NCBI GenBank assembly: GCA_037444445.1
Contig: JBBIMK010000014.1
Span: 19,626-51,625, forward strand
Direction of reading: 5' to 3'
DNA from: a bacterium
GTDB taxonomy: Bacteria; UBP7; UBA6624; JBBIMK01
Length of the DNA stretch: 32,000 nt
Positions 1,741 to 29,100 of this stretch are shown piece by piece. A program made the position numbers and the translations under genes. The notes below the pieces were generated by a model that had not been told where the DNA came from, made no database searches, and saw only the letters and a list, made by a program, of their open reading frames with translations. The first letter of the stretch is position 1. Each line of letters starts with the position of its first letter.

Positions 1741-1780
1741 TGACCCTTTTGGGGTCAGGCACCAAACGGTGTCATTATTT
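1735..1780. repeat. 46-nt double-hairpin intergenic element, copy 1 (forward orientation)
   Basis: AAATAATGACCCTTTTGGGGTCAGGCACCAAACGGTGTCATTATTT. Termini AAATAATGAC/GTCATTATTT are inverted repeats. Two internal 6-bp hairpins: TGACCC..GGGTCA and GGCACC..GGTGTC. The TAA stop of the upstream gene (1738-1740) lies inside the left terminus. Confidence 0.8.
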
Positions 1781-1807
1781 TGTGATTTACAATTATACCG
1801 GGTTGAG

Positions 1808-4800: not shown

Positions 4801-4864
4801 GGCACTCCCCCCTCGCGGAACCTACATTCTCGTTTTACCATCCACCACCCTGATTCGGCTGTGA
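1808..4864 (+). CDS. UvrD/PcrA/AddA-like SF1 helicase fused to a C-terminal RecB-type PD-(D/E)xK nuclease
   Basis: SF1 motifs present: AAAGSGKT (I), VDEFQDTD (II), VGDPKQSIYRFRGA (III), NYRS (IV), VHAAKGLEFPVV (V), LYVACTRA (VI). C-terminal GKADLILIY..ILVDYKV..QLASY is a RecB-family nuclease signature. Start moved from the ORF-track GTG at 1769, which lies inside the repeat element, to the in-frame ATG at 1808. Confidence 0.85.
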   Translation: MEEGWAERLGLNPEQWSAVKALASGGGTSGGGNLLVSAAAGSGKTRTLVGAYLYLFATGSAPLERIVAITFTEKAGGELRARIREGILNLKPEILHPESVMERLAEAPIGTIHSFCGRILRDYAGEAGLPPDFEVLQPVESQYLLEKVARNCLSPLLVASRKENGRADTLTALLARNEYRFSSILKSIVEIILSARTRHLPPEKWTVYGLKAEERSQETKDRKQTAGQEAQENTIHSQKPDELKYTKDILLLTKYVYDSFIKEKKRQGLVDFDDLLEKVHDLLTAHEDIAIEVSGRFPYILVDEFQDTDILQYAIFQALHRKGARFFFVGDPKQSIYRFRGAEVACFYQARKDFQVTPLHLSCNYRSRKGLVEYYNRFFSLTFSEGLQEIPYEYMKPARESTSSGNEGESLPVSVILHLSTFVEELRAFEVKRLVSLLQELRAGGLEWGDIAVLLRNFSRIVHYESALTRAGIPFFTFSGRGFWDSPEIHDFINFLRCLLFPADRLAYASVLKSPFGGVSDEGLMAHFTKTRVESEPLKEDALRIQAVDELLTGFRERMWKIPLPRLLEEILQESWVGAVLLATPGGLRKYANLKKLVDLARSLSRRFSLTLPDFLEYFQVFQERGAVEGPAPVDVQDKSTVKFLTVHAAKGLEFPVVILVDNYYHLPSPPDILVSSRYRSDFYPDEGILVRTPETDEKGEKLKAPLFNQLLKCERMREREEEKRGLYVACTRAMDRLIFFFSAKVKEDKKNRRWMLDFPKNASHCFSTLFALGHGLYESFRDEGDGTRGKPSSLLDATSIQELQSLVESHLRKEGLEVLSWEPEVRGPEASAPAVPVEMSAVEYQRRFAPIPAPEWKGIREAVKVEAEPPTEAEARWGNILHRFLYLWDFQPQTAQRVLEKVSREFALSKAMMLEVKEMTENILKTPLPGWVESAVRVHKEFSLYERGEAGWVHGKADLILIYPDSFILVDYKVTTGEIEPYRPQLASYTRILKESLALPPRGTYILVLPSTTLIRL

Positions 4865-6481: not shown

Positions 6482-7566
6482 GAGTGGGGCTGGACATTTC
6501 CAGCATCGTTCACGGGGCGGGCATCGGACGGTATACCGCCCTCCTCGCCGACGCCCTGAACACTTTAACGGATAAAGAGGTGGAACTTTTCTTCTTCTCT
6601 CGCCGGAACTTGCCCATCCATCTCCGCTGGGAGAAGGCTCATATTCGGGTTCTTCCTTCCTCCCGTCTCCTCTACCATCTGCTCTACCTCGGAATGGAGT
6701 TGAGAAAGGAGGGAGTGGAGGTTTTTCATTCTCCCGACTTTCTCCTCCCCCTCGGATTAAGGATACCGGGCATCATCACCGTGCATGACCTGTCGCCGTG
6801 GGATGAGCCTGAGAGCGTGAGTCACCGGGCACGAATCCTGTATCGCTGGTTCCTCCCCGCCTCCATCCGAAAGGCGAGCAGGGTCGTTGTGGATTCCGGG
6901 TTCACCCGCTCCCGCTTGTGCCATCACTTTCCCCAATCTGCTGAAAAGGTTCAGGTAGTCTATCCCGGTATTTCATCCGCCTTCAAGCCTCTTTCCCGGG
7001 AGAGGGTGGAAGAAGTCCTGTCTCGCTATCACATTTCCTCTCCCTATGCGTTGTTCGTGGGCACCCTGGAGGAGCGGAAGAATTTCCCTCTCCTATCCCG
7101 TGTAGTAGAAGGCTTGCAGAAGGACCATCCCATCGGCCTGGTGGTGGTGGGGCGGAAGGGAAGCGCAGGGTCTAAAATCCTCTCACAACTTCAAAAAATC
7201 CCTCACTTCCGGTGGGTTCCTCACCTGAACGATGAGGATTTATGTGCGGTTTACAGCGGCTGTGCCCTCTTCCTCTTTCCATCCCGGTATGAAGGCTTCG
7301 GCTACCCACCCCTGGAGGCTATGGCGTGTGGAGCGCCCGTGGTGGCAAGCAGGGTAGCCTCCCTGCCCGAATCCGTGGGTGAAGGAGGCATCCTCGTAGA
7401 ACCCGAAGAAGAAACATTCCTGAAAGCCTCACGGCAGATATTGTCCGACGCTTCCTTTCGTGAAAGTCTCATCCAGAGGGGGAAAGAATGGGTGAAGCGG
7501 TTTCCTGCTTCCGCCACCGCAGTCGCTCTCCTTTCCCTGTATCGCTCCCTTGCCCCGCCAAAATAA
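6478..7566 (+). CDS. family 4 (GT-B) glycosyltransferase
   Basis: Classic GT4 C-terminal motif FPSRYEGFGYPPLEAMACGAPVVAS. N-terminal Glyco_trans_4-like region with ITVHD. Confidence 0.85.
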   Translation: MRVGLDISSIVHGAGIGRYTALLADALNTLTDKEVELFFFSRRNLPIHLRWEKAHIRVLPSSRLLYHLLYLGMELRKEGVEVFHSPDFLLPLGLRIPGIITVHDLSPWDEPESVSHRARILYRWFLPASIRKASRVVVDSGFTRSRLCHHFPQSAEKVQVVYPGISSAFKPLSRERVEEVLSRYHISSPYALFVGTLEERKNFPLLSRVVEGLQKDHPIGLVVVGRKGSAGSKILSQLQKIPHFRWVPHLNDEDLCAVYSGCALFLFPSRYEGFGYPPLEAMACGAPVVASRVASLPESVGEGGILVEPEEETFLKASRQILSDASFRESLIQRGKEWVKRFPASATAVALLSLYRSLAPPK

Positions 7567-9654: not shown

Positions 9655-9727
9655 GAGCCGCTAGCTCAGTCGGTAGAGCACTGGACTTTTAATCCAGGGG
9701 TCGCAGGTTCGATTCCTGTGCGGCTCA
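9655..9727 (+). tRNA. tRNA-Lys (anticodon UUU)
   Basis: Hand-folded 73-nt cloverleaf. Acceptor GAGCCGC/GCGGCTC, D arm GCTC-AGTCGGTA-GAGC, anticodon arm CTGGA-CTTTTAA-TCCAG, variable loop GGGTC, T arm GCAGG-TTCGATT-CCTGT, discriminator A. CCA is not encoded. Confidence 0.9.
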
Positions 9728-9819
9728 CACCTTCTTTATATCGGTTCCCGGCGAGGGAGCAGAGTGGAAGGACGCGATTTGTGCGCCCTGCATCTTCTTT
9801 ACACTCCCTTCTATTGTCT

Positions 9820-13276: not shown

Positions 13277-14470
13277 ATGCTGGAACTCATTAGAAGGCTG
13301 GGAGCAGACGCGGCGGAAGTGTATGAGGAAAAAACTACCTATCGCCAGGTGAGTGAAGGCGTTCTCACCCGTAGAGTGGAGAAAGGGATTGCCCTGCGGG
13401 TGTTGAAATCCGGGCGGTTGATTTTCCTCTCCAGCCCCTCTCCCGAGGATGCGCTTTCCCGTTTGAAATCCGCAGCAGGCAACCTGAAACACTTCCCGAA
13501 GCAAAATTTAAATTTCCCCCGGGTGTATGATAGGAAGCGAGCCCCTCAGGGCTACGACCCATTTTTAGACTCTTCCACCTTTCAAAGCCGGCTGGATACT
13601 CTTTCCTGTTCTTTCCCGCTTCCCTTCATAGAATACCGGGAGAAAATCAAAACCGTCTCGCTTTATAATTCGGAGGGGTTGAGTTTGCAGTATGCCTGCT
13701 CTTATCTGAGAGCGGGCTGGCGGTATGTCACCGGGGGGCTTCATTCTCCTGCCACGACTTTCTGGATTCAAAAACGATTCTTTCAAGATTTGTTGAAAGA
13801 ATGCTGGAGCCTGCCGGAGAGGGACCGAGAGACCGAGCACCCCGCTTCGCCTTTGCCCGGGGTGGAGAAGGTTCTCCCATCCTCATTTGTGTTGAAGCCA
13901 TCCGCAGTGAGACAGGTTCTTCAGGTGACCGCGGGGCAATTTTATGGAGGTTCTCACCCGCCGGAGCAGGTGTCGCCTGAATTCTCCCTCATAGACGATG
14001 GCACCCTGCCGGGAGGTTGGGGCACCGAGCCTGCGGATGGAGAAGGGTGTCAGCCCCGGAAAACCGTGTTGTATCAGGATGGACATCTGGAGGGGCTTTT
14101 GTATGATGCCTTGACGGGTGGTCTTTATGGGCATTGCTGTAGTGGAAACTGCATCAGGCAGGATTATCAAACCCTTCCCCGGATAGGCAGCACGAACCTT
14201 GTCATTCCTCCTTCCACGATGAGTTTTAGTGAGTTTATGGAAGGGGAAAAAGCCATCCCCGTGGTGAAACACTTTCTCACTCTACGCTTTCATCCTCCCG
14301 ATGTGGAGGGGATAGGTATATGGGAGATGAGGCATTATGGGGAGCCCGCTGGTTGTGTCTACACCAGCCCCATTCGCTGGAATTTTCGTGAGTTGTTGAG
14401 GAAGATATCGGGTCGTTTTGATGATTTTCGCCTGTGTGGGCATTATGGCTCCCCCTCCCTGCTGATATAG
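13277..14470 (+). CDS. PmbA/TldD-family protein (no HExxxH, so PmbA-like)
   Basis: N-terminus LIRRLGADAAEVYEE..YRQVSEG and C-terminal signature GNCIRQDYQTLPRIGSTNLVI (compare TldD/PmbA G-N-x-R-R-x-S-Y-x-x-x-P-x-x-R-x-T-N). About 40-50 aa shorter than typical family members. Confidence 0.7.
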   Translation: MLELIRRLGADAAEVYEEKTTYRQVSEGVLTRRVEKGIALRVLKSGRLIFLSSPSPEDALSRLKSAAGNLKHFPKQNLNFPRVYDRKRAPQGYDPFLDSSTFQSRLDTLSCSFPLPFIEYREKIKTVSLYNSEGLSLQYACSYLRAGWRYVTGGLHSPATTFWIQKRFFQDLLKECWSLPERDRETEHPASPLPGVEKVLPSSFVLKPSAVRQVLQVTAGQFYGGSHPPEQVSPEFSLIDDGTLPGGWGTEPADGEGCQPRKTVLYQDGHLEGLLYDALTGGLYGHCCSGNCIRQDYQTLPRIGSTNLVIPPSTMSFSEFMEGEKAIPVVKHFLTLRFHPPDVEGIGIWEMRHYGEPAGCVYTSPIRWNFRELLRKISGRFDDFRLCGHYGSPSLLI

Positions 14471-14520
14471 AATAAGATGCCTATTCTTTACGATAAAGAC
14501 ATTTAGGGTTACGCTTATAT

Positions 14521-16065
14521 ATGAAGATGGGGGAAGAAAGAACGGATGTGCTGGTGGTGGGGAGCGGGATAGGGGGAGCATCCGCCGCTGTATCCGCTTT
14601 TGAGAAGGGTGTTTCCGTCACTTTAATCACCAAAGCGAAAGGTCCTGCGGAAGCCACTACCCGCTACGCCCAGGGTGGGATTGCTACTCTGGGTGCTGAG
14701 GATTCGCCGGCGCTATTTGAGGGGGATATTTTATCAGCGGGATGTGGAATCAACGACCCTTCTGCGGTGAGAATTCTGACCACAGAAGGTCCGAAACTGG
14801 TGGAGGAGGTGCTGATGGGCCGTCTAAGAGTGCCTTTTGACAGGGATTCTCAGGGGCGTCTGGTATTCGGGCGGGAATCAGGGCATTCGGTTCCACGAAT
14901 TCTTCACTGCGCTGACGCCACGGGAAGCGCCATTGAGAAAGCGTTTATGCAATATATTCTGCAGAAGACCCACATCCGGGTCCTCACCGAGGTTCATGCC
15001 TTTGACCTTCTGCTACGGGATGGAGGGGTGTGGGGATGCACGATACTTCAGAAGGGGGGTGTGGAACTCCAGCCATTGCTCGCCAGGAAGACGATACTTG
15101 CCACGGGAGGCATCGGCGACCTTTATTTATACTCCACGAATCCACCGGGGAATTCCGGCGACGGTGTAGCGATGGCTGCCCGGGCGGGTGCCCTGATTCG
15201 CCACGCCGAATTTATTCAGTTCCACCCCACCGTCTACTTCCCCCCGGAGGGCACCGGCTGGAGGCCTCTTCTCATCACGGAAGCCATCCGGGGAGAGGGC
15301 GCCATCCTCCGAAATGCCCGCGGTGAAGCCTTTATGGAACGCTACGACCCGGTGCGTAAAGACCTTTCCTACCGCTATCTCATCGCAACCGCCGTGGAAA
15401 AGGAAATCCAGGATACCGGCGGAGTGGTGCTTGATTTAGAGCCCGTTCTGAAAAAAGTAGATTTCCCTCATCGCTTCCCGTCGGTTTATCAGGGATGTCT
15501 GAAGGTGGGGCTGGACATCCTGAAGGAGGGGCGGATACCGGTTCAGCCCGCTCAGCACTTCTTCTGTGGTGGCATCGCCGTAAACGAGAACGGGCAGACG
15601 ACCCTCTCTAACCTGTATGCTGTGGGGGAGTGCGCAGAAAGCGGGGTTCACGGTGCTGACCGCCTTTCCTCCACCTCGCTGTTAGAAGGGCTGGTGTGGG
15701 GATGGCGCGCCGGCGCCCACGCCGGGGAGGGAATCCGCTCCTTTACAGACACTGCTATCCCCACCGTTGTCGCCCCTTCCTGCGAGTGCGTGGACCAGCC
15801 TCTGCCCTCCGGGTTCACCCGTGAAAAGTTCCGCCGCCTTCAAACCCTGATGTGGAAAGAGGTGGGCATTCAGCGAACCCTCTCAGGGCTGGAGCACACC
15901 TACATAGAAGCCCTGAAACTGAAGGGTGAGGCGGACGACTACGCCCGCTTTCGGGTGGACCCGGAACTGAACGCCTTTCGCAATGCCTGCCTCCTTGCCA
16001 GCATCATCTCCCGCTCTGCGGCCGGAAGGAAATCCTCCCTCGGCTCTCACCGCCTGCGGGAATAG
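14521..16065 (+). CDS. nadB: L-aspartate oxidase
   Basis: FAD-binding DVLVVGSGIGGASAA, RYAQGGIA, and succinate dehydrogenase/fumarate reductase-type flavoprotein blocks (FHPT, GECA..GVHGANRL-like GADRLSSTSLLEG). Confidence 0.9.
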   Translation: MKMGEERTDVLVVGSGIGGASAAVSAFEKGVSVTLITKAKGPAEATTRYAQGGIATLGAEDSPALFEGDILSAGCGINDPSAVRILTTEGPKLVEEVLMGRLRVPFDRDSQGRLVFGRESGHSVPRILHCADATGSAIEKAFMQYILQKTHIRVLTEVHAFDLLLRDGGVWGCTILQKGGVELQPLLARKTILATGGIGDLYLYSTNPPGNSGDGVAMAARAGALIRHAEFIQFHPTVYFPPEGTGWRPLLITEAIRGEGAILRNARGEAFMERYDPVRKDLSYRYLIATAVEKEIQDTGGVVLDLEPVLKKVDFPHRFPSVYQGCLKVGLDILKEGRIPVQPAQHFFCGGIAVNENGQTTLSNLYAVGECAESGVHGADRLSSTSLLEGLVWGWRAGAHAGEGIRSFTDTAIPTVVAPSCECVDQPLPSGFTREKFRRLQTLMWKEVGIQRTLSGLEHTYIEALKLKGEADDYARFRVDPELNAFRNACLLASIISRSAAGRKSSLGSHRLRE

Positions 16066-16141
16066 ACTCTGGTCCTGTTCACCCGCCTTCATCAAGGGCG
16101 AAGCCCTGATAATACACACCCGGGAAATCTCCACCGTAGTA

Positions 16142-16193
16142 TTGACAGTTGACAACCCCTGATTTTTATCAGTGTATAATATAGGTGAGGAGG
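16142..16193 (+). promoter_or_regulatory. strong sigma70-like promoter plus Shine-Dalgarno for the DGQHR gene
   Basis: Duplicated TTGACA (16142-16147 and 16149-16154), TGTATAAT (16173-16180) and GGTGAGGAGG (16184-16193), which ends 11 nt before the ATG at 16205. Spacing from -35 to -10 is 20 or 27 nt, which is non-optimal, so the -10/TG element probably dominates. Confidence 0.5.
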
Positions 16194-16204
16194 TTGAGAG
16201 GTGA

Positions 16205-17311
16205 ATGCGTGCCATTCAGGTTCGTCAGAAAGAGGGAGTCTTCTATTTTGTGAACTACCCGGCGGTGGAGTTGCTGGAGAAAGTCCGATTTATCTCCCGC
16301 TATTACTACGAGGGTGAGAAGGTGGAGGAAGAGAAGCAGCCGAAGGATGAAATCGCCCAGTTCATTGGGAAAATAGAGAGGAGCGACCGGGCATTTCAGC
16401 GAGCCTTGAGTCGGCGGAAGGTGGCAAGCATCGTGAATTTCTACGAAACCGCCGGTGTTCAGCCCATCATCCCGGGCACGATTCTTTTGGTGACGGAATC
16501 CTTTCTGGATTTCAAACCCCTGGGGCAAGATGGGAATTTCGGGGAACTGGAGGAGCCTCCCGGCAAGTTTTTGGTGATAGACGGCCAGCACCGCCTGGCA
16601 GCCCTCTATTTCTACCGTCTCAAGCATCCGGAAGAAATCGCCAGGATTCAGGTTCCGACCATCATTTTTGACGGGAAGAGCAGTGATTTCACCGCCGAGA
16701 TGTTCGTGATTATCAACTCCACCCAGACGAAAATCAACAAGTCGCACCTGGTGGACTTGATGGAGCGGGTCACCTTCGGGACGAACCCGTACAAGAAGTT
16801 CGCCGCCGGAATCGTGGCTCATCTTTACACCGATGGCATTTCCCCCTTGCAGTATAAAATCAACCGCCTGGGCGGTCGCAGTAAGCAGGAAAAATGGATT
16901 CTCCAGTCGGAACTGTATAACGAAGTCCTCAAGGTGGTGGAACGCCACAAGAGGATGTTTGAGAAGAGATTTCTCCTCCGGTCCGACCGGGGCGCTGACC
17001 TGTTCGCGGATTACCTCCGCGCCGTCCGCCGCACGATGTACGAAATCTGGGGAAAGAAGGAGTTTATGTTCACGAATTCCGTTACCCTGAAAGCCCTCAT
17101 CCGGGTGCTCAATGACCTGCTGGATAAAGGGGCTGTGGTGGAGGGGTGGGAAGAAGATGGCGAAGAAGCCTTTATGCCTCTACTGGACCCCTGGAGAGCC
17201 CTATCTCCCAGGTTTCGCACGGAGGGGTTCTATGAACGGTTCCCCGCCAAGGGGCAGATTGAACGCGTGCGACGCATCCACCAGGAACTGAAAAATGCTC
17301 TCGGTCTGTAA
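16205..17311 (+). CDS. DGQHR-domain protein (DndB-like, ParB/Srx nuclease-fold superfamily)
   Basis: Literal DGQHR motif at residues 126-130 (nt 16580-16594) in the context FLVIDGQHRLAAL. Downstream FVIINSTQTKINKSHLVDL matches the second conserved block of DndB/DGQHR proteins. Confidence 0.85.
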   Translation: MRAIQVRQKEGVFYFVNYPAVELLEKVRFISRYYYEGEKVEEEKQPKDEIAQFIGKIERSDRAFQRALSRRKVASIVNFYETAGVQPIIPGTILLVTESFLDFKPLGQDGNFGELEEPPGKFLVIDGQHRLAALYFYRLKHPEEIARIQVPTIIFDGKSSDFTAEMFVIINSTQTKINKSHLVDLMERVTFGTNPYKKFAAGIVAHLYTDGISPLQYKINRLGGRSKQEKWILQSELYNEVLKVVERHKRMFEKRFLLRSDRGADLFADYLRAVRRTMYEIWGKKEFMFTNSVTLKALIRVLNDLLDKGAVVEGWEEDGEEAFMPLLDPWRALSPRFRTEGFYERFPAKGQIERVRRIHQELKNALGL

Positions 17312-17361
17312 ACAGGAATGGTGTAAAAGAAGCAGGGGAAATCCTGCCGGCAGTGTGGTAA

Positions 17362-17720
17362 TTATCTCCTCGTCTCTTCTTGAATGATGACGGGTGTTGG
17401 CGTGAGGTCAACGATGACTGGCTGACTGCTGACCTCCAGCCGGACAGGTTTCGGGTCTCCGGCAGAGGTTGGCGTCTCCCACAGCAAAGCCGGGCGCCGA
17501 ATGTCCTTCAATGGCACTTTCTCCCGTGGAAGGGGGTCGTCCATTCCCCGGACTTTATCTTCCGAAAGCCACGCCACCCACACCGCAGGCCGCCCCTCCT
17601 GAAACCGGAAGCGATAGAGTTCAACTCCGGGGTTGGAGTTCATCTTTTCTGCGTGCGAGAAACCATCCGTTTTCTCGGCCAGGAGTTTCAGGGCATAAGA
17701 TGCGGGCCAGGGCGGGGATT
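17362..17720 (-). pseudogene. probable C-terminal remnant of a truncated gene
   Basis: 93-aa ORF (ATG 17643) with no Shine-Dalgarno sequence. The frame stays open and protein-like for 26 more codons upstream (ESPPWPASYALKLLAEKTDGFSHAEK) until a TAG at 17721-17723, with no alternative start. The upstream end coincides with the start of the lower-GC cassette. Confidence 0.3.
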
Positions 17721-17723
17721 CCT

Positions 17724-18230
17724 ATGCACTCTCGTGAGACCTTTGAACGCCATATCCAAGAACTCTACGAAAGTGCAGAAAAGTTCAAGAGAAAGAGCAG
17801 GGAAATCGCGGCGTCTGCACAGGGGCGAGAGATGTATACTATCCAACCCAAGGAGTTGACTTCAGGAATTAAAGCAGGACTTGTCATTGAAAACTACCTG
17901 GGGGGCTTGTATCACCTGACAATTGATGAGTGGAAAGTAATAAATGACGCGATTGGCATCATCGAGTGCAAACATACAGAGCGGACCGCCTTGCCTTCAA
18001 GGGATGACATCAAGGACGCACTACTAAAGATGGCTCTATGGACCAACCTGAAGTCCATTCAGTATGGAGGGGAATCGTTCCCCGTCGTTCCGATCCTCCG
18101 CCTCACCTTTGCAGGTAGCACAGAGGCAGCCATAAACAAAGGGCGCAATAGAGATTTGGTCGCCGGACTCAAGGAAGAAGCCACAACTAACCGCTTTCAA
18201 TTATGGCTTAACGACCAGCGATTAGCATAA
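17724..18230 (+). CDS. small PD-(D/E)xK (restriction endonuclease/Hjc-like) fold protein, putative nuclease
   Basis: E-x11-D-x12-E-x-K arrangement: VIENYL..LTID..GIIECKH (nt 17889-17972). Start taken at ATG 17724 (alternative 17700). The ORF-track start at 17469 overlaps the minus-strand remnant and reads as low-complexity Pro/Ala sequence. Confidence 0.5.
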   Translation: MHSRETFERHIQELYESAEKFKRKSREIAASAQGREMYTIQPKELTSGIKAGLVIENYLGGLYHLTIDEWKVINDAIGIIECKHTERTALPSRDDIKDALLKMALWTNLKSIQYGGESFPVVPILRLTFAGSTEAAINKGRNRDLVAGLKEEATTNRFQLWLNDQRLA

Positions 18231-18300
18231 TTGCGTCACGCGGCCCCGACACTACCTCGCGAAGAAACCAGGCTCAGGGAATTTCTGATTTGCAGATTGC

Positions 18301-20439
18301 TTAATCAAGACTTAGGTGCTTCAGAATCTTGCTGTAAAGCTCTCGGACTTCAGAAGGACACTCAGTCGCATGACCCACAGCCCGTCCAACGAGGGCCTTG
18401 CTCTTACCAAACTGTTTTTCCGCGTCGTTGTACTTCTTGTTTGAAATGCTCTTAAAAAACTGTTCAGATTCCTCATTCGCAGTCTTTGCTAATGTGAATA
18501 CTCCACATTCCTCAGCGTGTTCCTTGACGCTTGCGAAGTTGATTTTGGTCGGTGGTTTGTTTTTAACGGTATACCCTGCACTTTCCAGTTGTTTTAGAAC
18601 ATTTTGTTGTCTCTTATTCTGAAGGTCGTAAGAGAGAGCTGGGCCATCACAAATGATGACCACGGGAATCCCGATGCTCCGGCAAATTGATGCATAATTA
18701 CCAAACTGCTGGTCCCCTCCGACTGAGAGCAAGGCCAAGTCAAGTTCTTCAGGAGATTTCTTACTTAGCGTTTTGGCTGCCTTAGGTAACCAAACTGAAA
18801 GTGCTCCGAGAAGCGTGTCGTCTTCCAGCAAGATTGCACCACGGGCAAATAGGAGTTGTCTGACCTCGGCATATTGTGAGAGATGGCGAATCATCTGCCC
18901 CGCACGCTTAGTTTCCGCCGGAAGTGTCAACCTTTTATGCCCAGTCCTATCTTCTTCCAGATAGAAGCGATGGATTTGCCGGATGTTTTGGTCATCCTCG
19001 CACGACACGAGATAGGGTGAGTGGGTAACCACGAAAAATTGTGCGCCACTATTTTGCTTCAGAACTCGGAGTATTGATGCTTGTCGTGTCGGATGGACGT
19101 TAGCCGCCGGTTCATCCAGAAAAATCACGCGACCCTCAGGCTCCCATAGTAAGGAACAAAGGAATAAGGTTTCCCAGTTCCCGGCTCCGGTCAATTCAAT
19201 AGGGATGTCGCGTTCAGATTTGGGAACGACAATGGAAATGAAGGAGCCGGGCTTATTCTCTTTGGGAACAATTCGCGATTCATGTTTCACATCTACCTCG
19301 TGGTCCGTCAATTCCCTGAACAGTTCAGCGATTTTCTTGTACCGCTCGCGGGATTGAGCATCCCCATTCTTGAGGTTGAAAAGATAAAGCGGAAGGTTCG
19401 CGCCATCCCGCAAATTCAAGTCCGCCCTCGATTTCTCGTAGATGTCGTACTTTGTCTGAGGAACACTCCTGATGTTTGATGTTACGATAAATGAACGCCG
19501 AAACAGAGCACCAAGGATAGAATACAGCCCATAACTTCTCGTGTCAGTTAGGGGGTTTTCACCTACGAGTTCAGAAAACTTGCGGATGAGTTCCGCTCCT
19601 TCACTTTCACGCTCTACCGCGCGGAGCTTGTTACCCTCGAGACGCATTGATACAATGGCGTCTTCAGAGAAAATCCCTCGGAGAGCGAAAGGTTGATTGA
19701 ACAGCACGTCCGGCTCCACAAGTGGGTCTGTGCAATCGCCTTTACACTTTTGATAGTTTCGTATTAGAGCCTGAATGGGGTTGATGTGGGAACGGTCTGC
19801 AGTCTTATTTGCGTGTTCAACCCCATCATAATATGGATGAATCCACCAGCGATACGCCACACTATCAACTTCGAACTCCCAGTAACACTCCCAGTTTTCC
19901 CGTAGCGCTCCAGCATATGACATCGTGAGCGTGCCGTGCAATAGGTCATCCAGCACTTTTTGGCTCTCCAGACTTTTCTGCACCCATTGTGGTATCTTCG
20001 CGGAAACTTTCTCAGCGAATCCCCGCCGAAGAGTCTGAATTTCTTCGGGTTCCATTCCGGTCTGTTGCAGGTTTGGCGCAAATTCGTTATTGAAGGCACT
20101 CTCCGCATCGTCCCGTGAGAGTGAGCATAGGCAAAGTTTGAAGAATGTGAGGAAGGCTTCTCTCTCATCGTCCCTGTCAAATGACACTCCAATTCTCACC
20201 AGGAAAGTCGGCGTTCCAGCGCCAATGCGGACAGCCTCGTTCCAGGGTCTCCAGGCACCTGTCCCCTTTGCAAATCCGACAAGATTATCTCGGAGCATCT
20301 CAAAAGCCCGAATGAAGTTCGTCTTACCGGCTCCATTGGGACCTACGAGCATATTCAGATGCTCGTCCAACCCCTCTATGGAAATCTCTTCAAAAGATAA
20401 GAAATCCTTCGCGTAGAAACTTGTGAATTTCATCTTCAT
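18301..20439 (-). CDS. OLD-family-like ABC-type ATPase with C-terminal Toprim-like domain
   Basis: Walker A GPNGAGKT (nt 20320-20343), signature-like LTGAGNWE, Walker B VIFLDEPAANVHP, H-loop VVTHSP, and a long insert between Walker A and B as in AAA_15/OLD proteins. C-terminal LLFARGAILLEDDTLLG and GIPVVIICDGPA resemble the Toprim Glu and DxD strands, but DxD is reduced to D-G-P. Confidence 0.8.
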   Translation of the reverse strand: MKMKFTSFYAKDFLSFEEISIEGLDEHLNMLVGPNGAGKTNFIRAFEMLRDNLVGFAKGTGAWRPWNEAVRIGAGTPTFLVRIGVSFDRDDEREAFLTFFKLCLCSLSRDDAESAFNNEFAPNLQQTGMEPEEIQTLRRGFAEKVSAKIPQWVQKSLESQKVLDDLLHGTLTMSYAGALRENWECYWEFEVDSVAYRWWIHPYYDGVEHANKTADRSHINPIQALIRNYQKCKGDCTDPLVEPDVLFNQPFALRGIFSEDAIVSMRLEGNKLRAVERESEGAELIRKFSELVGENPLTDTRSYGLYSILGALFRRSFIVTSNIRSVPQTKYDIYEKSRADLNLRDGANLPLYLFNLKNGDAQSRERYKKIAELFRELTDHEVDVKHESRIVPKENKPGSFISIVVPKSERDIPIELTGAGNWETLFLCSLLWEPEGRVIFLDEPAANVHPTRQASILRVLKQNSGAQFFVVTHSPYLVSCEDDQNIRQIHRFYLEEDRTGHKRLTLPAETKRAGQMIRHLSQYAEVRQLLFARGAILLEDDTLLGALSVWLPKAAKTLSKKSPEELDLALLSVGGDQQFGNYASICRSIGIPVVIICDGPALSYDLQNKRQQNVLKQLESAGYTVKNKPPTKINFASVKEHAEECGVFTLAKTANEESEQFFKSISNKKYNDAEKQFGKSKALVGRAVGHATECPSEVRELYSKILKHLSLD

Positions 20440-20453
20440 TCCACCTACCCTCC

Positions 20454-20462
20454 ATTATAGCA
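20454..20462 (-). promoter_or_regulatory. possible extended -10 element (TGCTATAAT) upstream of the ATPase gene
   Basis: The minus strand reads TGCTATAAT-GGAGGGTAGGTGGA-ATG. Only 14 nt separate the -10 element from the start codon, so the transcript would have a very short leader. Confidence 0.3.
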
Positions 20463-20567
20463 TAACACACCTATACAACTGCGAGTTGCCCCTAAAATGA
20501 CTCATAGATGGACTTTCGTGATGAACAGGATGTCTTCTACCGTCGGCGGTGTGCCTTCTGAGGCAGG

Positions 20568-21044
20568 CTATTCCACCAGCCCCAATTCCCTCATCACTTC
20601 TATCAGTTTCTCGCCGTAGTTTGGGTCGGAGGAATAGACTCCGGTGAGTGCGCGGGCGAAGCATTCAGCATCCTGCCCGCAGGACAGCGCTCTGTGGTAG
20701 ATGTATTTTCCTTTCTTCTTTCGGAAGAAGAGGCGGGCATGGTCAACCACACTTTCCTTCAAGTCCTCATAGACCTTAAAGGCTTCCTGCCTTCTATCCC
20801 AGCCTGACGGGGTATATTCCCAGGTGTAAAGGAAAACGGAGGGCTCACCCTTTCGGGCTTTGACGCCGAAGTAGTTGTTGGCATTCCGGGCAAGCCACGA
20901 TTGCCCCCAGCCGGATTCTAATAGCCCCTGCGCCACCGTCACCTGATAGGGGATGGCATCATAAGGGGAAATGGAGTGGACCTCTTTCGCCGCCTGAATT
21001 AACTCCTCCAGAAACTTCTTTCTTCCTTCGGATAATTTCGTCAT
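20568..21044 (-). CDS. N-acetylglucosaminidase-domain cell-wall hydrolase (FlgJ/LytD-type, phage-lysin-like)
   Basis: Glucosaminidase signature VAQGLLESGWGQSWLARNANNYFGVKA. No signal peptide. Confidence 0.8.
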   Translation of the reverse strand: MTKLSEGRKKFLEELIQAAKEVHSISPYDAIPYQVTVAQGLLESGWGQSWLARNANNYFGVKARKGEPSVFLYTWEYTPSGWDRRQEAFKVYEDLKESVVDHARLFFRKKKGKYIYHRALSCGQDAECFARALTGVYSSDPNYGEKLIEVMRELGLVE

Positions 21045-21409
21045 CGTTTCTCCTTCCCCTCGCTATTTCCTTTCAGCCTTAACAGGCACGCTGTTAAGTG
21101 GTTCATCGCCCTGGCCCTTTCACCCAGCCACCTGCCCAGGTCGTTCTCTGACAGGTTCAAGTAGATTATATTATGAGCGGGCTCAAAAACGAGTTCCAGT
21201 AGTTCATGAAGTAAAGCCGACTCCACCTGCTCCCGGGGGCACTGCCTGGAAACCTCTAATAGTGCGTATTTCCCCTCCGGGTCCACCACCTCCAGTTCCG
21301 CCCGATTCCCGGGTAGCAAGTAGACCACCTGAACCTCTATTTCCCAGTCCAGAAGGTCCAGGCGTCTTTGCCACTCCATCAAAATATCCTTCAGGGTTTT
21401 TGGGTTCAT
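21041..21409 (-). CDS. hypothetical protein, translationally coupled to the glucosaminidase
   Basis: ATGA overlap with the downstream gene. Start set at ATG 21409 (MNPKTLKD), 7 nt after GGGAGGTGA, rather than the ORF-track start at 21472. Contains LLHELLELVFEPAH, a zincin-like but non-canonical motif. Confidence 0.5.
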   Translation of the reverse strand: MNPKTLKDILMEWQRRLDLLDWEIEVQVVYLLPGNRAELEVVDPEGKYALLEVSRQCPREQVESALLHELLELVFEPAHNIIYLNLSENDLGRWLGERARAMNHLTACLLRLKGNSEGKEKR

Positions 21410-21567
21410 ATCGTCACCTCCCGTCATTCTAACCCAAGCGTAAGATGGAAAAAGGAGAGGGCAAGGGTTCACCCCCCTAGGGGGGGAAGGAGTTCAGGAT
21501 GGTAATGCCTGCTTCCGCTGGATAGAATGTGTTATGATAGATGTGGGTGGGCGGGAGAGGATGCAAA

Positions 21568-22206
21568 ATGATAAAGAGGGAAGCGAAGGAGTGGGACGAA
21601 AGTTACGGGGAAGGGTTTCCACCGGCCTGGGACACGGGCTTCCCTTCCCCCCTTCTGGTCAGGCTGGTGGAGCAGAATCCCGGGCTGAAAGGGTGGGCGC
21701 TGGATGTGGGCTGTGGCACGGGCACAAACGCCATTTACCTTTCCTCCAGAGGCTTTCAGGTGGTGGGGATTGACCTCTCACAAAAAGCCCTGAAAAGAGC
21801 AGAAGAAGGGGCGAAAAAGGCAGGCGTTCCGGTCCATTTCCTCCACGAAGACTTCCTTCGGTGCATCCCCCATATCCTTCAAATTCCCCATTTTCCCGGC
21901 GTCTTTGACCTGGTTTTTGACCGGGGGTGCTTCCATTCCTTCGTGAACTCAAAACGCCCCGCCTATGTCCGAATCCTCAAACAGTTAACCCGCCCCGGAA
22001 GCGTTTACCTGATGATTTGTGGAAGTGCGAAGGGACGCTGGCCCGCTACCCAGGGACCCCCAAAGGTTCGGAAGATGGAAATCCTTCACACCTTCCGTGG
22101 CGCCTTCCACATCCTCTCCATTGACGACACCCATTTTGAAGCCACTGCGGAATACCCGGACCACCGCCCCTGCGCCTACGCCTGCTACCTCCTCCGCAAG
22201 CCCTGA
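21568..22206 (+). CDS. class I SAM-dependent methyltransferase (small-molecule type, TPMT/TehB-like)
   Basis: Motif I ALDVGCGTGTNAIYL, post-I VVGIDLS, and DLVFDRGCFH. No (D/N/S)PP(Y/F/W) or PCQ DNA-methyltransferase motifs. Start at ATG 21568 follows GGGAGAGGA. Confidence 0.75.
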   Translation: MIKREAKEWDESYGEGFPPAWDTGFPSPLLVRLVEQNPGLKGWALDVGCGTGTNAIYLSSRGFQVVGIDLSQKALKRAEEGAKKAGVPVHFLHEDFLRCIPHILQIPHFPGVFDLVFDRGCFHSFVNSKRPAYVRILKQLTRPGSVYLMICGSAKGRWPATQGPPKVRKMEILHTFRGAFHILSIDDTHFEATAEYPDHRPCAYACYLLRKP

Positions 22207-22299: not shown

Positions 22300-24354
22300 T
22301 TACGGGAAAGAGGCAGTCTTCAGGAAACGCTCGGAGAAAAAGAGGGGAAGGGAGGAAGAGAGGGAATTTCCACGATTATCCAGCGCACGAATAACAACAT
22401 AAATGGTAGTTGGAATAGAAGGAAGGGTGTATGAAACCCGCTTCACAGTTTGAGGTTGAAGTATTGGCTCTTTCGTCCATTTGCATGAAACTTCATATCG
22501 GAACCATGCGTAGAAAACAGAGTATTGCTGAGCGGAGCGTTTTTCCGATTCGCAGAAAGAGATTTCGTAGGAGACGGCCCCCGGATAAGGCTCCCACTCT
22601 AAAACCTCCCCGGCTCGCGCAGGAGATTTCGTGAGGACCTGGATGGCTCTAACAATCCGTATGGTTCCCAGCGTCGCTTCTGGGTTTTCAGCGGTAATCT
22701 GAATTTCGGGTAGAAAATAATGGGCAAGGGAAGTGCTGGATGGCTCTGTCAGGATGTCCTCCGGAAGGTTCAAAAGCAGGCGATAGGTTCTGTAAGGAAG
22801 GGAGGAAATGAGGAAGGAGCCATCTGCATTCAAAGGAAAATGGGTGACCTCGGTGGGAAACTCATCCTTTTCGGTAAATAAGTTTTTCACACGGGGGGAA
22901 ACAGAAACCCACACTCTTCTCACATCCGCATCCGGCTTCAGGACGCCGGGCATAAATTCCACTTTGCCGGAAACCTTCCCTGCCCGCTCTATGGAGAAGG
23001 CATCCTCCTTCGCTACTTCAACTCGGTTTTTGTGTTCTTCCGGCGCACCACCGTAACCTCTCCGGGCTTTGGGAAACAGAGCCATCTGGCGGTTGACTCG
23101 CCTCTGGAAGCTTTCCTCGGCTTGTTGAGCAGAAGGCACCTGGTGATGGAACGCAAACTCAATGTATCTGGCTTGTGCCCCCCGGTCCGTATCTTTCAAC
23201 ATCATAAAAGCCTCCCAGAGGGCTTTCGCTTCCTCCCGGGATAAGAAAGGGTCATTCTGGCTGAAAGTTTGAAGCACCAGCCCCCAGATTGCGCTCGTTT
23301 TATAAGGCTGAAGCGTTGCTTTCCGAATGAAATACTCTCGGAATGCCGGATACTCCACAGAATGCCGTTTCATACCAGTAAAACCGGGGAGGGGCTCTGA
23401 CAGATGAAACCTTTTCAAGGAGGGCTCAAGGTCAGCAGGTAAACGGTTAGACCACGCTTTCATAAAAGAATCGTGCATAGCGGTATAAATCTTCAGGGTG
23501 ATACCCTCGGGGTATATCATTGCATGGATTCGGGCGATTCCAGGCGGTCTGCCGGGATAAGCTGGAAATTTCTTATGACTCCGCTGAATCCACGAGTATG
23601 CGGGGAGGCAGAAAAGAACCGTTAGAACCAGGCTAATGAGGAGCATTTTTCGCATTTCCCCCCATCCTTTTGCTTTTTGCAAAGCAGGAAACAGCCACCA
23701 CACGAGAGCCATCGCTAAGCCTGCTCCCAGGAAGGGAATCAGGCGGAGAAAATAGTCGGGAAATTCCAGTATTGCTATTTCCATGTTCCAGCCGATGAAA
23801 TATAAGGAGAGGAAAATCACACTCACCGCGATGATAACAAAATACAGCCCCCGAAGCCAGCCTGCGAGGATGGGAACCGCCCCAAACTTCGTTCTCTCTA
23901 CCTTCATCAAAAGGAGTTCCGAAATCAGGAGAAAAGGGAAAACGGTCAGGCTCATCTTAAACAGAAACCCGGGAGTGAGCATTCGCGGATATATGGGATA
24001 GTATCCAAAAATCTGAAGTGTATACGGATGAAACTGCATCACCACACTGGCGAGAATCAGCATCAGAAACAGGAGAAACTGGATGAGGCGCAGGAAACGA
24101 ACCCAGAATCTGGCGGGCTTCATCCACACCCAGAAAAGCCAGATTCCCCAGATAATCAGCGCAAAAAAGGAGGGCAGGACAAACAGAAATGGCTTCCGAA
24201 ATAGACGGAACAGGAATGCCAGAATGTAGTGCCCCACATTCAAACTCTCTGGACGAAAGAAAAGCCTATCGTCGGTGAGGGCAGAGTAGCAAGATGCCCA
24301 CATCAGAAACATCCACAATCCGATTACTAACCCATAAAATGCCACTTTACGCAT
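22300..24354 (-). CDS. polytopic membrane protein with a large C-terminal soluble region
   Basis: About 8-10 hydrophobic helices in the first roughly 270 aa, followed by about 400 aa of soluble sequence ending in beta-rich, Fn3-like segments (EVLEWEPYPGAVSYEISF). No catalytic motif recognised. Confidence 0.6.
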   Translation of the reverse strand: MRKVAFYGLVIGLWMFLMWASCYSALTDDRLFFRPESLNVGHYILAFLFRLFRKPFLFVLPSFFALIIWGIWLFWVWMKPARFWVRFLRLIQFLLFLMLILASVVMQFHPYTLQIFGYYPIYPRMLTPGFLFKMSLTVFPFLLISELLLMKVERTKFGAVPILAGWLRGLYFVIIAVSVIFLSLYFIGWNMEIAILEFPDYFLRLIPFLGAGLAMALVWWLFPALQKAKGWGEMRKMLLISLVLTVLFCLPAYSWIQRSHKKFPAYPGRPPGIARIHAMIYPEGITLKIYTAMHDSFMKAWSNRLPADLEPSLKRFHLSEPLPGFTGMKRHSVEYPAFREYFIRKATLQPYKTSAIWGLVLQTFSQNDPFLSREEAKALWEAFMMLKDTDRGAQARYIEFAFHHQVPSAQQAEESFQRRVNRQMALFPKARRGYGGAPEEHKNRVEVAKEDAFSIERAGKVSGKVEFMPGVLKPDADVRRVWVSVSPRVKNLFTEKDEFPTEVTHFPLNADGSFLISSLPYRTYRLLLNLPEDILTEPSSTSLAHYFLPEIQITAENPEATLGTIRIVRAIQVLTKSPARAGEVLEWEPYPGAVSYEISFCESEKRSAQQYSVFYAWFRYEVSCKWTKEPILQPQTVKRVSYTLPSIPTTIYVVIRALDNRGNSLSSSLPLFFSERFLKTASFP

Positions 24355-26181: not shown

Positions 26182-29100
26182 TTACGGGTCTAATTCACTG
26201 CATTGAGTGCGGGTGAGGTTGGGTCCGGTGTCGTCGTAGTTCATCCCATTGCCCGGGTCTTTAGCGCCCTGGGCGTTGGTGGGGTCATTCGGGGAATCCT
26301 TCACATCAAAGTCGCCGTCCTTACGCAGGTCTAACTCGTGGACTTTTTCGTGGAATAGAGTGAGGTTATCGTTGTCCTTAGAGTTATCCACCGCTACCTG
26401 GGAGTTGGGCCAGAAGGTCACGCCGAGGACACCACGCCTGATGCCGGGGACATAATAGATGTTTTCCGTGTCGGGGTTGATATCAAAGTAGCCGAGGTTC
26501 ATGGCTTCAAAGGCATCGTTGTTATCACCGGGGTCGGCATAATCGCCATCGCCATTGCTGTCGTAGCGGTCCCATCCATCGCCATCTCTGTCAATTTTCT
26601 TCCAGTCCGCGGCGGGGATGGTAGTGAAGGTTGGATTGAAAGTGACAAAGAACCCGCAGTTACACAGGAGAGCATTGAGGTTGAAGGCGGCTTGAGCGGC
26701 ATCCACATCAGCCTGCGCTTCCGCCTGGGTTGCAGCGCCCTCCACGAGGTAGATGTGCATATTCAGAGTCTTTATGGGTTTAATCGTAAAGGGGAAATGG
26801 CGGAAGTTTTCACCAAACTTGGTCGGGTCGTAGAGAATTTCATTGGAATTTTCGTCATAGAGGCGCAAATCGGGAACCCCAATGTAGGATTCAACTATGT
26901 TGGGAACAACAGGAGGAGTGCTGTATTCCGCGAAGAAGGGAACCGATGTGCCTATCACACCGCCTGAGCCCACGAAATCAACCGTAAAGTCCACAAGCCA
27001 GAGGTCCGGGTTCCAGGGAGCATCAACGGGATTACGGCAGTTGACCGCAAATTGGGGAGCGGTGGGTTGACAGTCATTGAAGATAATCTCAGAACTTTTG
27101 GGCCAGACGAGTTGTCCTGAACCCATTTTCCAGCCTGGCTTGCCCTGCGGTATGCGGATTTCAAATTGAGTCCGGAATTGCGACCCCGGCGGAAAGCCAT
27201 TCCCTGTCTGTCCGGAAACCGGGTCGCGGTATTCTAACCTCCAGGGAGGATAGCCTACCGAAACACTGCCCTGAGCCCCTGAGGGAAGGTGGGTGCAGGT
27301 GAAGTTGCCCACATCGTAATCCGTTGCTTGCACTTCAGACTTCAATCTCCAGTCGCCATCCGATTGGAACGGACCGGGGGATAAGCTGGGGGTATCGGAT
27401 GTGCAGTTGACATCCGAAGGGCCTGGAAAAGGAACAGGATTGCCAAACGGGTCCCTCAGAAGGCTCTCTACGGGTCCGAAAACTGTAGAACGCAGGTCAA
27501 GCGACACGATTTCTGTGGGAATAATATCTACCGTCCTTGTGTCGGTGGGGTGAAACTTTTCCAGTGTGGAACGGTCGTGAATGAGAGCGCTGAAGTTATA
27601 TTTTCCAGAAGCATTCAGGGTGACATTGCCGGAGTAAGTGCCGTTGCCGTTGTCTGTCAGTGGGATGCGGTCGGTGAAGGTGCCACTTCGTGTGCCATTC
27701 ACTTCCACGAACACATCAAAGAAGGAAAAGTGGGTGGGCTGTCCCGATAAATCCAGCGTAACGATTTCAACGGGAATCGGCTCGCCAGCCCGGGCGGTGG
27801 GAGGAACGGTGATGTTTACCTGCGCTGGCTTCTGTATCACCGGGTCGTGAATTAGCAGAAACCACCAGTGCCAGAAACGGCAGATGAAGTGGCATCGGAA
27901 GACGATTTTATCTATGGGCTGTGTGGAGCGAACGGTGATTTCACTTCTCGCGGTTCCACCCCAGTTTGCCTGAAAATCCAATTCATTGCCATTGGCATCG
28001 TAAGCGGTCAGAGTGTTGGCACCGTTTCCTGGTCCGGATGGCGTCAGGTCTTCCTGCTTAACCGTGACCGAGTATGTGTTGGTGCCACGGAGGTCTAATT
28101 CAATGGCGCCGGGTTTGAGATAGACCCATCCGTCGGAGGTCTTCTGGTAACTCACGGGTCCACCGACGCCAAATTCGGTATCATTCTGAAATTTAGCTGG
28201 AATCTCGCCGATTTTTTGCCCGGTGGGCGGGTCGCCTCCTGCCTCGCTATAAATCGGCAGTGTAAAGTTCCACCAGGGAGGAATGCCGTCAAATTCGGGA
28301 ATCCAGGACCAGTAGGGCCACTGAAAAATCCATAGCCAGCAGAGGTCGGCTCCATCGCTGCCGGGATTTCCAGGGGTAGCGGTTCCAACGATGACGCCGG
28401 AAGCACCCCCGAAGTTGCCTTGACTGCCGGGTGGGCATCCAGCACCGCCATTGCCAGCATTGCCTCCTTTAGCGTTATAGACTCCAAAGGGGCCTGCATC
28501 GCATCGGGCATCCGCCCCGTTGCCACCATCTCCGCCTTTGTTGAACTTATCGCAATCCCCTCCATTTCCACCATTTCCACCTATGGCGGTGGCGTTTCCA
28601 TCCACCCGGGGTGCTCCCTGGAAGTCCCTGCCGCCCCGGGCATAAGCCTTTCCGCCACCTCCACCATCACAGCACGGGAGGCCGTTACCGCCATCGCCAC
28701 CTGTGGCATCCGCATTTCCTCCAACGCCACTGACAAGGGTGACTGCTCCGCCCGGTGTTCCGGGTCTGGCGGTGGCGAATCCGCTATCACCACCGAATGC
28801 ACGGAGGTCACAGCCTTTTTGCCCCGGGCATCCATCGGGTCGCGTTGCAGGGTTGGGAGTGGCGGTGGCATTTCCACCGCTTCCAGAAGTCGCATTGGCA
28901 TTACCTCCGGCACCGATGGCAGAAACCCCGAATCCGCCATTTCCACCCTCCGCCCGTGCATTTCCTCCCCATCCTGCCCAGGCGAACTGATTGCATCCAT
29001 TGCAATTGGAATCACCGCCATCGCCGGCGGTGGCCGTAGCGGTGCCTCCAGCGCCGCCATTATAGGTGCCGATGGGAAGGAGATGTCCGATAAATCTCGG

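Follow-up and report, generated by a model that had tools for sequence, protein, structure and literature searches.

The subject of this analysis is the region at positions 16142–20462 of a 32,000-nucleotide stretch of bacterial DNA (GTDB lineage UBP7; UBA6624; JBBIMK01; GenBank assembly GCA_037444445.1, contig JBBIMK010000014.1, positions 19,626 to 51,625 of the forward strand). The whole stretch is referred to as the window. Three genes for nucleic-acid-directed proteins lie in the region: a gene for a DGQHR-domain protein, an open reading frame (ORF) for a small PD-(D/E)xK nuclease, and a gene for an OLD-family ATP-binding cassette (ABC) ATPase with a Toprim nuclease domain. An earlier sequence-only reading had taken the three for a single, undescribed and horizontally acquired immunity module. 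The locus is very probably a mosaic of unrelated parts and no single system. Its parts are a resident DGQHR gene, the 3′ fragment of a restriction gene, and a stand-alone OLD gene, the last two carried on 2.7 kb of foreign DNA. The region also holds the scar of a disrupted host gene between the DGQHR gene and the foreign DNA. The OLD gene is a divergent stand-alone OLD nuclease, an already known type, and is accompanied by restriction-modification debris. The domain and gene calls of the sequence-only reading, its hand counts of GC content and its gene remnant were borne out, whereas the three-gene module was not.

The limits of the foreign DNA are set by comparison with a sister strain, whose contigs L001 and L168 (both from Logan sample SRR11582170) were reached through the 90%-identity cluster members of window proteins; L002, found the same way, is one more distant relative. 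By blastn, L001 matches window positions 14024–17713 at 95.4% nucleotide identity and then diverges fully. L168 matches positions 21354–20436 at 92.6%, a span made up of a 143-residue gene, a glucosaminidase gene and the intergenic spacer, and then diverges into a lipoprotein hydrolase-like gene, termed GH2, instead of OLD. The gene order in L001 is nadB, DGQHR, a convergent gene for 544 residues termed GH1, and then GH2. GH1 and GH2 resemble glycoside hydrolases by eye, and family-model searches returned no match for either. L168 ends in ...ADFTD and L001 begins with TDFFEK..., an overlap of only the two residues TD that is compatible with one GH2 gene and does not demonstrate that the contigs join. 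Because the sister strain carries these genes at that place, the 2,723-bp segment 17714–20436 is recognized as foreign DNA that replaced GH2 and the 5′ three-quarters of GH1. A remnant of 119 GH1 codons was left behind, and tblastn found no further GH1 or GH2 sequence in the window. The truncated gene remnant of the sequence-only reading is thus real, but it is not the outer edge of a three-gene island, as it sits between the DGQHR gene and the other two genes. Just past its stop codon is a terminator-like hairpin, within the stretch that is 95% identical to L001.

Composition sets the same segment apart. Its GC content is 48.7% against 53.9% for the remaining window, which is below that of all 238 other intervals of equal size, and its tetranucleotide distance of 0.346 (against 0.194 ± 0.036) makes it the most deviant profile. 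GC content at third codon positions (GC3) is 70% in the DGQHR gene and 65% in both nadB and the GH1 remnant; in the restriction remnant it is 54%, and in OLD 51%. The hand counts made earlier are exact: 25/60 at 18301–18360, 27/60 at 19501–19560, 34/60 at 15001–15060 and 32/60 at 6901–6960. The low-GC island drawn from them holds for 17714–20436, but the DGQHR gene, with a GC content of 54%, lies outside it. On the foreign segment, the 3′ half of a type II restriction gene (plus strand) and an intact OLD gene (minus strand) converge. A search of the junctions turned up neither flanking repeats, direct or inverted, nor an integrase or transposase. A tRNA-Lys gene lies at 9655–9728, 8 kb from the segment. 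The donor may have carried a defence island in which methyltransferase and restriction genes converged on OLD, and of which illegitimate recombination would have taken up only a part. A donor island with methyltransferase and restriction genes beside OLD fits the OLD-type gene found downstream of the restriction gene in five of 80 related loci, which are described below.

At the right junction, the ATG of OLD occupies the position of the GH2 ATG in the sister strain. It seems that OLD has adopted the resident promoter of GH2, because an extended −10-like element, TGCTATAAT, and a following GGAGG are conserved in both strains and the two start codons coincide. Transcription of OLD would now proceed from the former GH2 promoter. 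The TGCTATAAT element was not picked up by a two-hexamer promoter scan, and its promoter role is putative. The coordinates of all features are collected in Table 1.

Table 1. Features of the region, in window coordinates.
Feature	Position	Strand	Basis
DGQHR-domain (DndB/ParB-fold) protein gene, 368 aa	16205..17311	+	TIGR03187 117 bits; resident, outside the acquired segment
Terminator-like hairpin	17331..17348	-	Pattern scan: GGCAGGATTTCCCCTGCT and T-rich tail, just past the GH1 remnant stop, facing the DGQHR end
3′ remnant of GH1 (glycoside-hydrolase-like)	17362..17721	-	Last 119 of 544 codons; tblastn of L001 residues 426-544 on 17721-17365, 92% identity
Left junction, resident/foreign	17713..17714		blastn match to L001 stops at 17713, unrelated from 17714
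5′-truncated type II restriction endonuclease gene	17714..18230	+	About 171 of about 360 codons (3′ 47%), C-terminal PD-(D/E)xK domain
Intact OLD-family ABC-ATPase/Toprim nuclease gene, 712 aa, stand-alone (Class 1-type)	18301..20439	-	Pfam AAA_21, AAA_15, OLD-like_TOPRIM
Right junction, foreign/resident	20436..20437		In the OLD start codon; L168 matches 21354-20436, then GH2
Extended -10-like element TGCTATAAT, then GGAGG, 5′ of the OLD start	20454..20462	-	Read from sequence; conserved in L168; resident DNA

The DGQHR gene is resident and has no link to the restriction fragment or to OLD. Sister-strain synteny and composition agree on this, and they likewise agree that the other two genes are foreign. 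The gene adjoins nadB in L001 (95% nucleotide identity) and in the more distant L002 (83–88%), and its GC and GC3 are host-like. The sequence-only reading had placed nadB upstream of the region, as it is (TIGR00551, E 3e-118). Horizontal acquisition, which it had proposed for the whole region, is upheld for 17714–20436 with its defence-type OLD gene and not for the DGQHR gene. The call of the protein itself was right: TIGR03187 scores 117 bits against a cut-off of 58.85, Pfam DndB scores 41.6 bits, and the DGQHR motif, at residues 126–130, is invariant in 28 aligned relatives. The scores for named equivalogs are far below their cut-offs, being 17.4 against 328 for DndB (TIGR03233), 40.3 against 300 for DpdB (NF041060) and 41.5 against 450 for TIGR04172.

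The DGQHR family is large and uniform. It has more than 5000 homologues; those among the matches listed are 55–63% identical over the full length and come from across phyla. Lengths range only from 367 to 378 residues, and mean column identity in a cross-phylum alignment is 74%. At least 547 species genomes of eight or more phyla carry a member, and the hosts include Nitrospirota, Binatia, Acidobacteriota, Myxococcota, Methylomirabilota, Verrucomicrobiota, Planctomycetota, Armatimonadota, and one Thermoplasmatota genome. Mean identity between phyla is 50–82%, reaching 94% for Binatia against Verrucomicrobiota, which suggests either horizontal spread or mis-binning.

Neighbouring genes in the family were read by eye from their sequences, without family models. 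Across the genome loci (L008–L087), neighbours are kept only within lineages and there is no conserved partner gene; the recurrent neighbour clusters look like housekeeping genes. In Nitrospirota (L016–L069), the gene is flanked by a divergently oriented QueG-like (epoxyqueuosine reductase) gene and by ThiE/ThiI-like genes, and the neighbours in Binatia read as ABC-transporter genes. The adjacency to QueG was considered as a functional link, given that DpdB acts in deazaguanine DNA modification. It occurs in Nitrospirota only and in divergent orientation, and was set aside as lineage synteny. The neighbours in the window are a pmbA/tldD-like gene, nadB and the hydrolase-like remnant. No dndACDE, dpdA/C or sspACD genes were found in the window neighbourhood, nor at family loci where neighbours were identified. 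The structure model is of moderate confidence (predicted local distance difference test, pLDDT, 69), and its only Foldseek match, a weak one to the ParB-like protein PadC, is uninformative on function. Literature text searches returned no description of a stand-alone DGQHR family. DndB-like proteins have a ParB fold and bind ATP or GTP (bioRxiv 10.1101/2025.10.10.680097), and DndB represses the dnd operon in an ATP-dependent manner (PMC4507180). By analogy, the DGQHR protein is most likely a nucleoside triphosphate (NTP)-binding, DNA-binding switch of the DndB/ParB type.

The OLD gene had been called correctly as a 712-residue OLD-like protein. Pfam scores are 86 bits for AAA_21, 59 bits for AAA_15 and 34.7 bits for OLD-like_TOPRIM (cut-off 23.2). 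The ATPase motifs, namely Walker A (GPNGAGKT, K39), Walker B (LDEP, D442/E443) and the H-loop (THS, H473), are conserved across 31 relatives. The nearest relatives are at most about 34% identical, are 650–800 residues long and share the architecture. The PADLOC models AriA, GajA and Old match the protein about equally. For a profile of its subfamily, the top match is the Thermus scotoductus enzyme TsOLD (6P74; 2e-26, 96 bits), with GajA reaching 62 bits. AlphaFold2 gave a confident model (pLDDT 90.7, predicted template modelling score 0.90), and Foldseek ranks 6P74 first (4.4e-14), followed by GajA and the OLD protein of retron Eco8. In the Toprim domain, E539 and D598 correspond to TsOLD E377 and D431. 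The two-metal ligands of TsOLD are E377, D431 and D433 for metal A and D381, S478 and E480 for metal B, the equivalents of S478 and E480 not being mappable by sequence.

Partner genes of other OLD-containing systems were sought around the gene. Among the domain matches of window ORFs, no UvrD helicase, reverse transcriptase, DUF4435 or HNH domain is adjacent to OLD. A UvrD/REP-type helicase gene (1031 residues, 1769–4864) lies 13 kb from OLD, too far for a GajB-like partner, and is probably housekeeping. Rfam detected no RNA family in 15500–22000 at E ≤ 0.1, although retron RNAs are poorly covered by Rfam. The neighbours of OLD in the window are the convergent restriction remnant downstream and the resident glucosaminidase genes on the other side. 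Claims on the homologues' neighbourhoods come from three independent contexts (L003, L006, L007), a small sample, which share no neighbour. The upstream genes in L003 and L007 were tried as an OLD partner and rejected, as they are not homologous to each other. An alignment scan of genome contigs found no OLD relatives, and one of viral contigs gave weak ATPase-only matches.

Class 1 OLD proteins are stand-alone genes in variable neighbourhoods (PMC10568477; PMC12796447). Two Class 1 members, P2 Old and the bacterial Vc OLD, protect against phage, and Vc OLD does so by nicking DNA in an ATPase-dependent way (PMC12392090). As judged from sequence, the window gene fits the published definition of stand-alone Class 1 OLD nucleases because its best match is TsOLD, it has no adjacent partner gene, and the neighbourhoods of its homologues vary. 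By analogy with Class 1, the protein would act alone. In such a scheme, ATP binding and hydrolysis by an ABC-ATPase dimer would govern the metal-dependent Toprim nuclease, which would nick or degrade DNA and so block phage replication.

Several observations weigh against this interpretation of the locus. One sister strain and two short contigs define the junctions, so the direction of the event, whether gain here or loss there, is suggested by composition. Throughout the OLD subfamily, the Toprim DxD motif reads CDG, and the second aspartate is absent. The window protein departs further, with EDDTL (codons 539–543, 18811–18825, minus strand) where 28 of 30 aligned relatives have EGxTE. This puts L543 at the position of the TsOLD metal-B ligand D381, where the same 28 relatives have glutamate. 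Nuclease activity may thus be weakened or atypical. Three independent neighbourhoods of the OLD subfamily were covered, and a partner that is rare or non-adjacent may exist. The restriction fragment keeps an open frame of 168 codons, a start codon and every catalytic residue, and could retain residual activity.

Two further readings give one of the genes a larger part, and the chance that either applies is real yet clearly the smaller one. In the first, the product of the stand-alone DGQHR gene is a ParB/DndB-fold NTPase with an uncharacterised regulatory or defensive function, provided by a single gene that is unusually conserved, has spread horizontally and needs no dnd, dpd or ssp partners. 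In the second, the 712-residue OLD subfamily, with its enlarged ATPase insert and CDG for DxD, forms an OLD class of its own whose catalytic site is atypical. The three genes act together in neither reading.

It is unlikely that OLD is not a defence gene and instead serves the cell in DNA transactions, as archaeal Cran1 does, or is a passenger in decay whose Toprim site is crippled. The class to which Cran1 belongs has a cell-cycle role (PMC12796447), and the leucine at the metal-B position, the aspartate at 540 where glycine is nearly invariant, and the subfamily's lack of DxD could all be signs of such a fate. However, the gene is strain-variable and compositionally foreign, and in two of the three homologue contexts an integrase or restriction-modification genes lie alongside. 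The membrane-protein gene that shares a conserved operon with OLD genes of Class 5 is missing here. The window protein retains its ATPase motifs as well as E539 and D598, and the Toprim domain of E. coli YbjD is reported to be dispensable for the phage phenotypes (PMC13261556). A defence-type OLD gene is therefore the preferred reading.

The second gene on the foreign DNA had been described as a mini-nuclease of about 170 residues. The signature stands, in that a D...ExK site is present (TIDE...IIECK) with residues that are invariant in the family. The gene is not complete; it is a 5′-truncated restriction gene, its N-terminal domain and methyltransferase being gone from the window. The annotated ORF runs from 17724 to 18230 (168 residues), with plausible starts at 17700 or 17724. 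The PADLOC model REase_II (PDLC03572) matches at 3.9e-27 over only model positions 194–354 of 371. An exhaustive HMMER search returned 220 relatives. Those of full length have 350–390 residues, and the window protein aligns only to residues 190–355 or so, the C-terminal 165 or thereabouts. The closest, P0187 (363 residues), is 53% identical to the fragment over residues 203–358. The most conserved part of the family is the N-terminal domain (WVSPKRTRSYPYARVYDTL...KDEG..GDRDFLQWDT), which is absent from the window. The invariant residues of the C-terminal domain, namely E, E, D (TVDE) and ExK, are all kept in the fragment. The foreign DNA opens with the codons GIPMHS, the internal G[VI]xMHS of the family, so that homology reaches the junction, past the annotated start codon.

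The genomic setting of full-length relatives shows what has been lost. Of 80 metagenome loci, 75 have a gene for an N6_N4 DNA methyltransferase of about 286 residues (PF01555, 6.8e-47) immediately before the restriction gene and in the same orientation, and a small gene resembling a helix-turn-helix controller is often found further upstream. The arrangement is that of a classic type II restriction-modification operon. No trace of the cognate N6_N4 methyltransferase or of the restriction N-terminal domain was found in the 32-kb window; the methyltransferase encoded at 21541–22206 is of the TehB/TPMT small-molecule type. A word-indexed search with the fragment returned only itself, and tblastn against plasmids and phages gave no match, even with a full-length relative as query. 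The family could not be named: Pfam, NCBIfam, PHROGs and the PDB gave no match, including for full-length relatives, and no prototype enzyme was found. The fragment is probably a non-functional remnant.

Some type II enzymes are as small as the 168-residue ORF. The ORF might thus be an autonomous small restriction enzyme or other nuclease, with its methyltransferase or immunity factor elsewhere in the genome. The ORF has an open frame, an ATG at the conserved methionine of the family, a purine-rich stretch upstream, a complete PD-(D/E)xK core, and an annotation as a protein by NCBI. Nevertheless, this is quite improbable. The missing N-terminal domain is the most conserved in the family and so probably essential, and the window has no N6_N4 methyltransferase. 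Five database entries (P0189, P0217, P0220, P0268, P0284) start at the MHS/LHS methionine, and neither of the two that were traced to contigs is autonomous. P0217 (L178 785–1399) is an independent 5′-truncated copy fused behind a truncated D12-class methyltransferase, with the N-domain motif YQSDALHWNLDQ still in frame upstream. For P0220 (L179), a contig end lies 20 nt from the start of the gene, and LGVK is encoded in frame upstream. The short relatives of 166–181 residues were thereby rejected as autonomous mini-nucleases on the DNA of these two. As L178 is a second independent truncation, annotated short forms of the family can be deletion products.

Whether the three families travel together was addressed by tblastn with the three window proteins over 175 related loci (1.67 Mb). 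The 82 DGQHR loci (1.04 Mb) hold no relative of OLD or the restriction gene, the 13 OLD loci (0.15 Mb) hold no relative of the DGQHR or restriction gene, and the 80 restriction-gene loci (0.48 Mb) hold no DGQHR relative and three weak OLD matches. For the trio, this is the lack of co-localisation that the sequence-only reading had itself named as grounds for refutation. The exception to this separation is an OLD-type ABC ATPase gene, distant from that of the window (E about 1e-5), which according to Pfam follows immediately after the restriction gene, in the same orientation, in five of the 80 loci (L137, L140, L149, L153 and L159). A Toprim domain is shown in L149 and L153. This association could reflect recurrent defence-island neighbours or a real link.

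A real link would allow the 168-residue PD-(D/E)xK protein and OLD to function together as a two-gene module, such as a nuclease effector under ATPase control. The two lie on the same foreign segment with similar composition, and the catalytic residues of the fragment are intact. Even so, such a module is about as doubtful as an autonomous nuclease, or slightly more so. The genes are convergent and not co-transcribed, the OLD-type genes of the five loci are distant relatives, and no relative of the fragment occurs in the 13 OLD loci. Where the association does occur, the restriction gene is near full length (L137, L140, L149, L153) and the methyltransferase is kept (L137, L140, L149). Homology up to the junction and the independent truncation in L178 indicate instead that the fragment is a deletion product.

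That all three form one new defence system acquired together is the least credible possibility: although three nucleic-acid-directed proteins without canonical partners lie within 4.3 kb, the sister strain has DGQHR at the same place without the other two, a host-gene remnant with its own terminator parts it from them, its GC3 is host-like and theirs is not, the strands alternate (+, +, −) with separate promoter regions, and in the loci above a DGQHR gene never occurs with a relative of either other gene, in either direction. As the sequence-only reading had rightly reported, the canonical partners of all three products are missing from the surroundings: dnd, ssp and dpd genes are lacking, OLD has no UvrD helicase, DUF4435, HNH or reverse transcriptase gene next to it, and no DNA methyltransferase gene lies close by.

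The far side of the region had been described as a pair of cell-wall hydrolases. The glucosaminidase is there, but its 143-residue partner has no match in Pfam, NCBIfam or PHROGs, and only one hydrolase domain is recognisable. The 143-residue gene (21041–21472) is shared with the sister strain and overlaps the glucosaminidase gene at the latter's start. Further along, a 684-residue multi-pass membrane protein (22300–24354) has no match in Pfam or NCBIfam. A second strain-variable locus lies at 26182–31956 beside galK, where the window has a gene for a 1924-residue Big_7/fn3/PKD repeat protein and the sister strain has a gene for a 1423-residue Peptidase_S8 protein (L169 224–4495). The two align only in short stretches near the 5′ end of the gene (39 nt at 95% and 226 nt at 77%).

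The locus illustrates that defence-like domains side by side need not make a system; here, comparison with a sister strain and neighbourhood counts across whole families split it. It is also a precisely bounded case of a defence gene cassette displacing metabolic genes, in which the incoming gene came to lie at the start codon and promoter of a resident one. Few stand-alone OLD proteins (P2 Old, Vc OLD, E. coli YbjD) have so far been tied to phage phenotypes, and the locus contributes a further, very divergent homologue of this kind. The large and strongly conserved family of orphan DGQHR genes that it brings to notice is worth following up, as is the atypical Toprim site of the OLD subfamily.

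Each part of the mosaic can be set against a known system. The DGQHR protein shares with DndB and DpdB the DGQHR motif on a ParB-like fold, but it falls under their equivalog cut-offs and lacks dnd, dpd and ssp genes. Conservation of its family across phyla far exceeds that of typical defence genes. The fragment shares with type II restriction-modification operons the catalytic C-terminal domain (53% identity to P0187) with its D...ExK site and conserved E and K residues, whereas the N-terminal domain of about 190 residues, the methyltransferase and the controller gene are missing from the window. The OLD protein has the ATPase fold of GajA (Gabija, Class 2) and of PARIS AriA and retron OLD proteins (Classes 3–4), and for GajA and Eco8 the Toprim fold as well; Foldseek matches the proteins of these classes at 1e-13 to 1e-10. 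In contrast to Classes 2–4, it has no adjacent GajB-type UvrD, AriB (DUF4435) or reverse transcriptase gene, and its profile scores for these classes are lower than for Class 1. PARIS has its DUF4435 Toprim domain in a separate protein, AriB, whereas the Toprim domain here is fused in one polypeptide and no DUF4435 gene is adjacent. The likeness is closest to Class 1 (phage P2 Old, Thermus scotoductus OLD, Vibrio cholerae Vc OLD and E. coli YbjD), which has in common with the window gene a stand-alone position in a variable neighbourhood and includes, in TsOLD, its best profile and structural match. Compared with the Class 1 proteins of about 525–590 residues, the window protein is longer, with about 160 extra residues between Walker A and the signature region. 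It is only 13% identical to TsOLD over the structural alignment, and it differs from Class 1 in having CDG for the Toprim DxD and leucine at the metal-B position.

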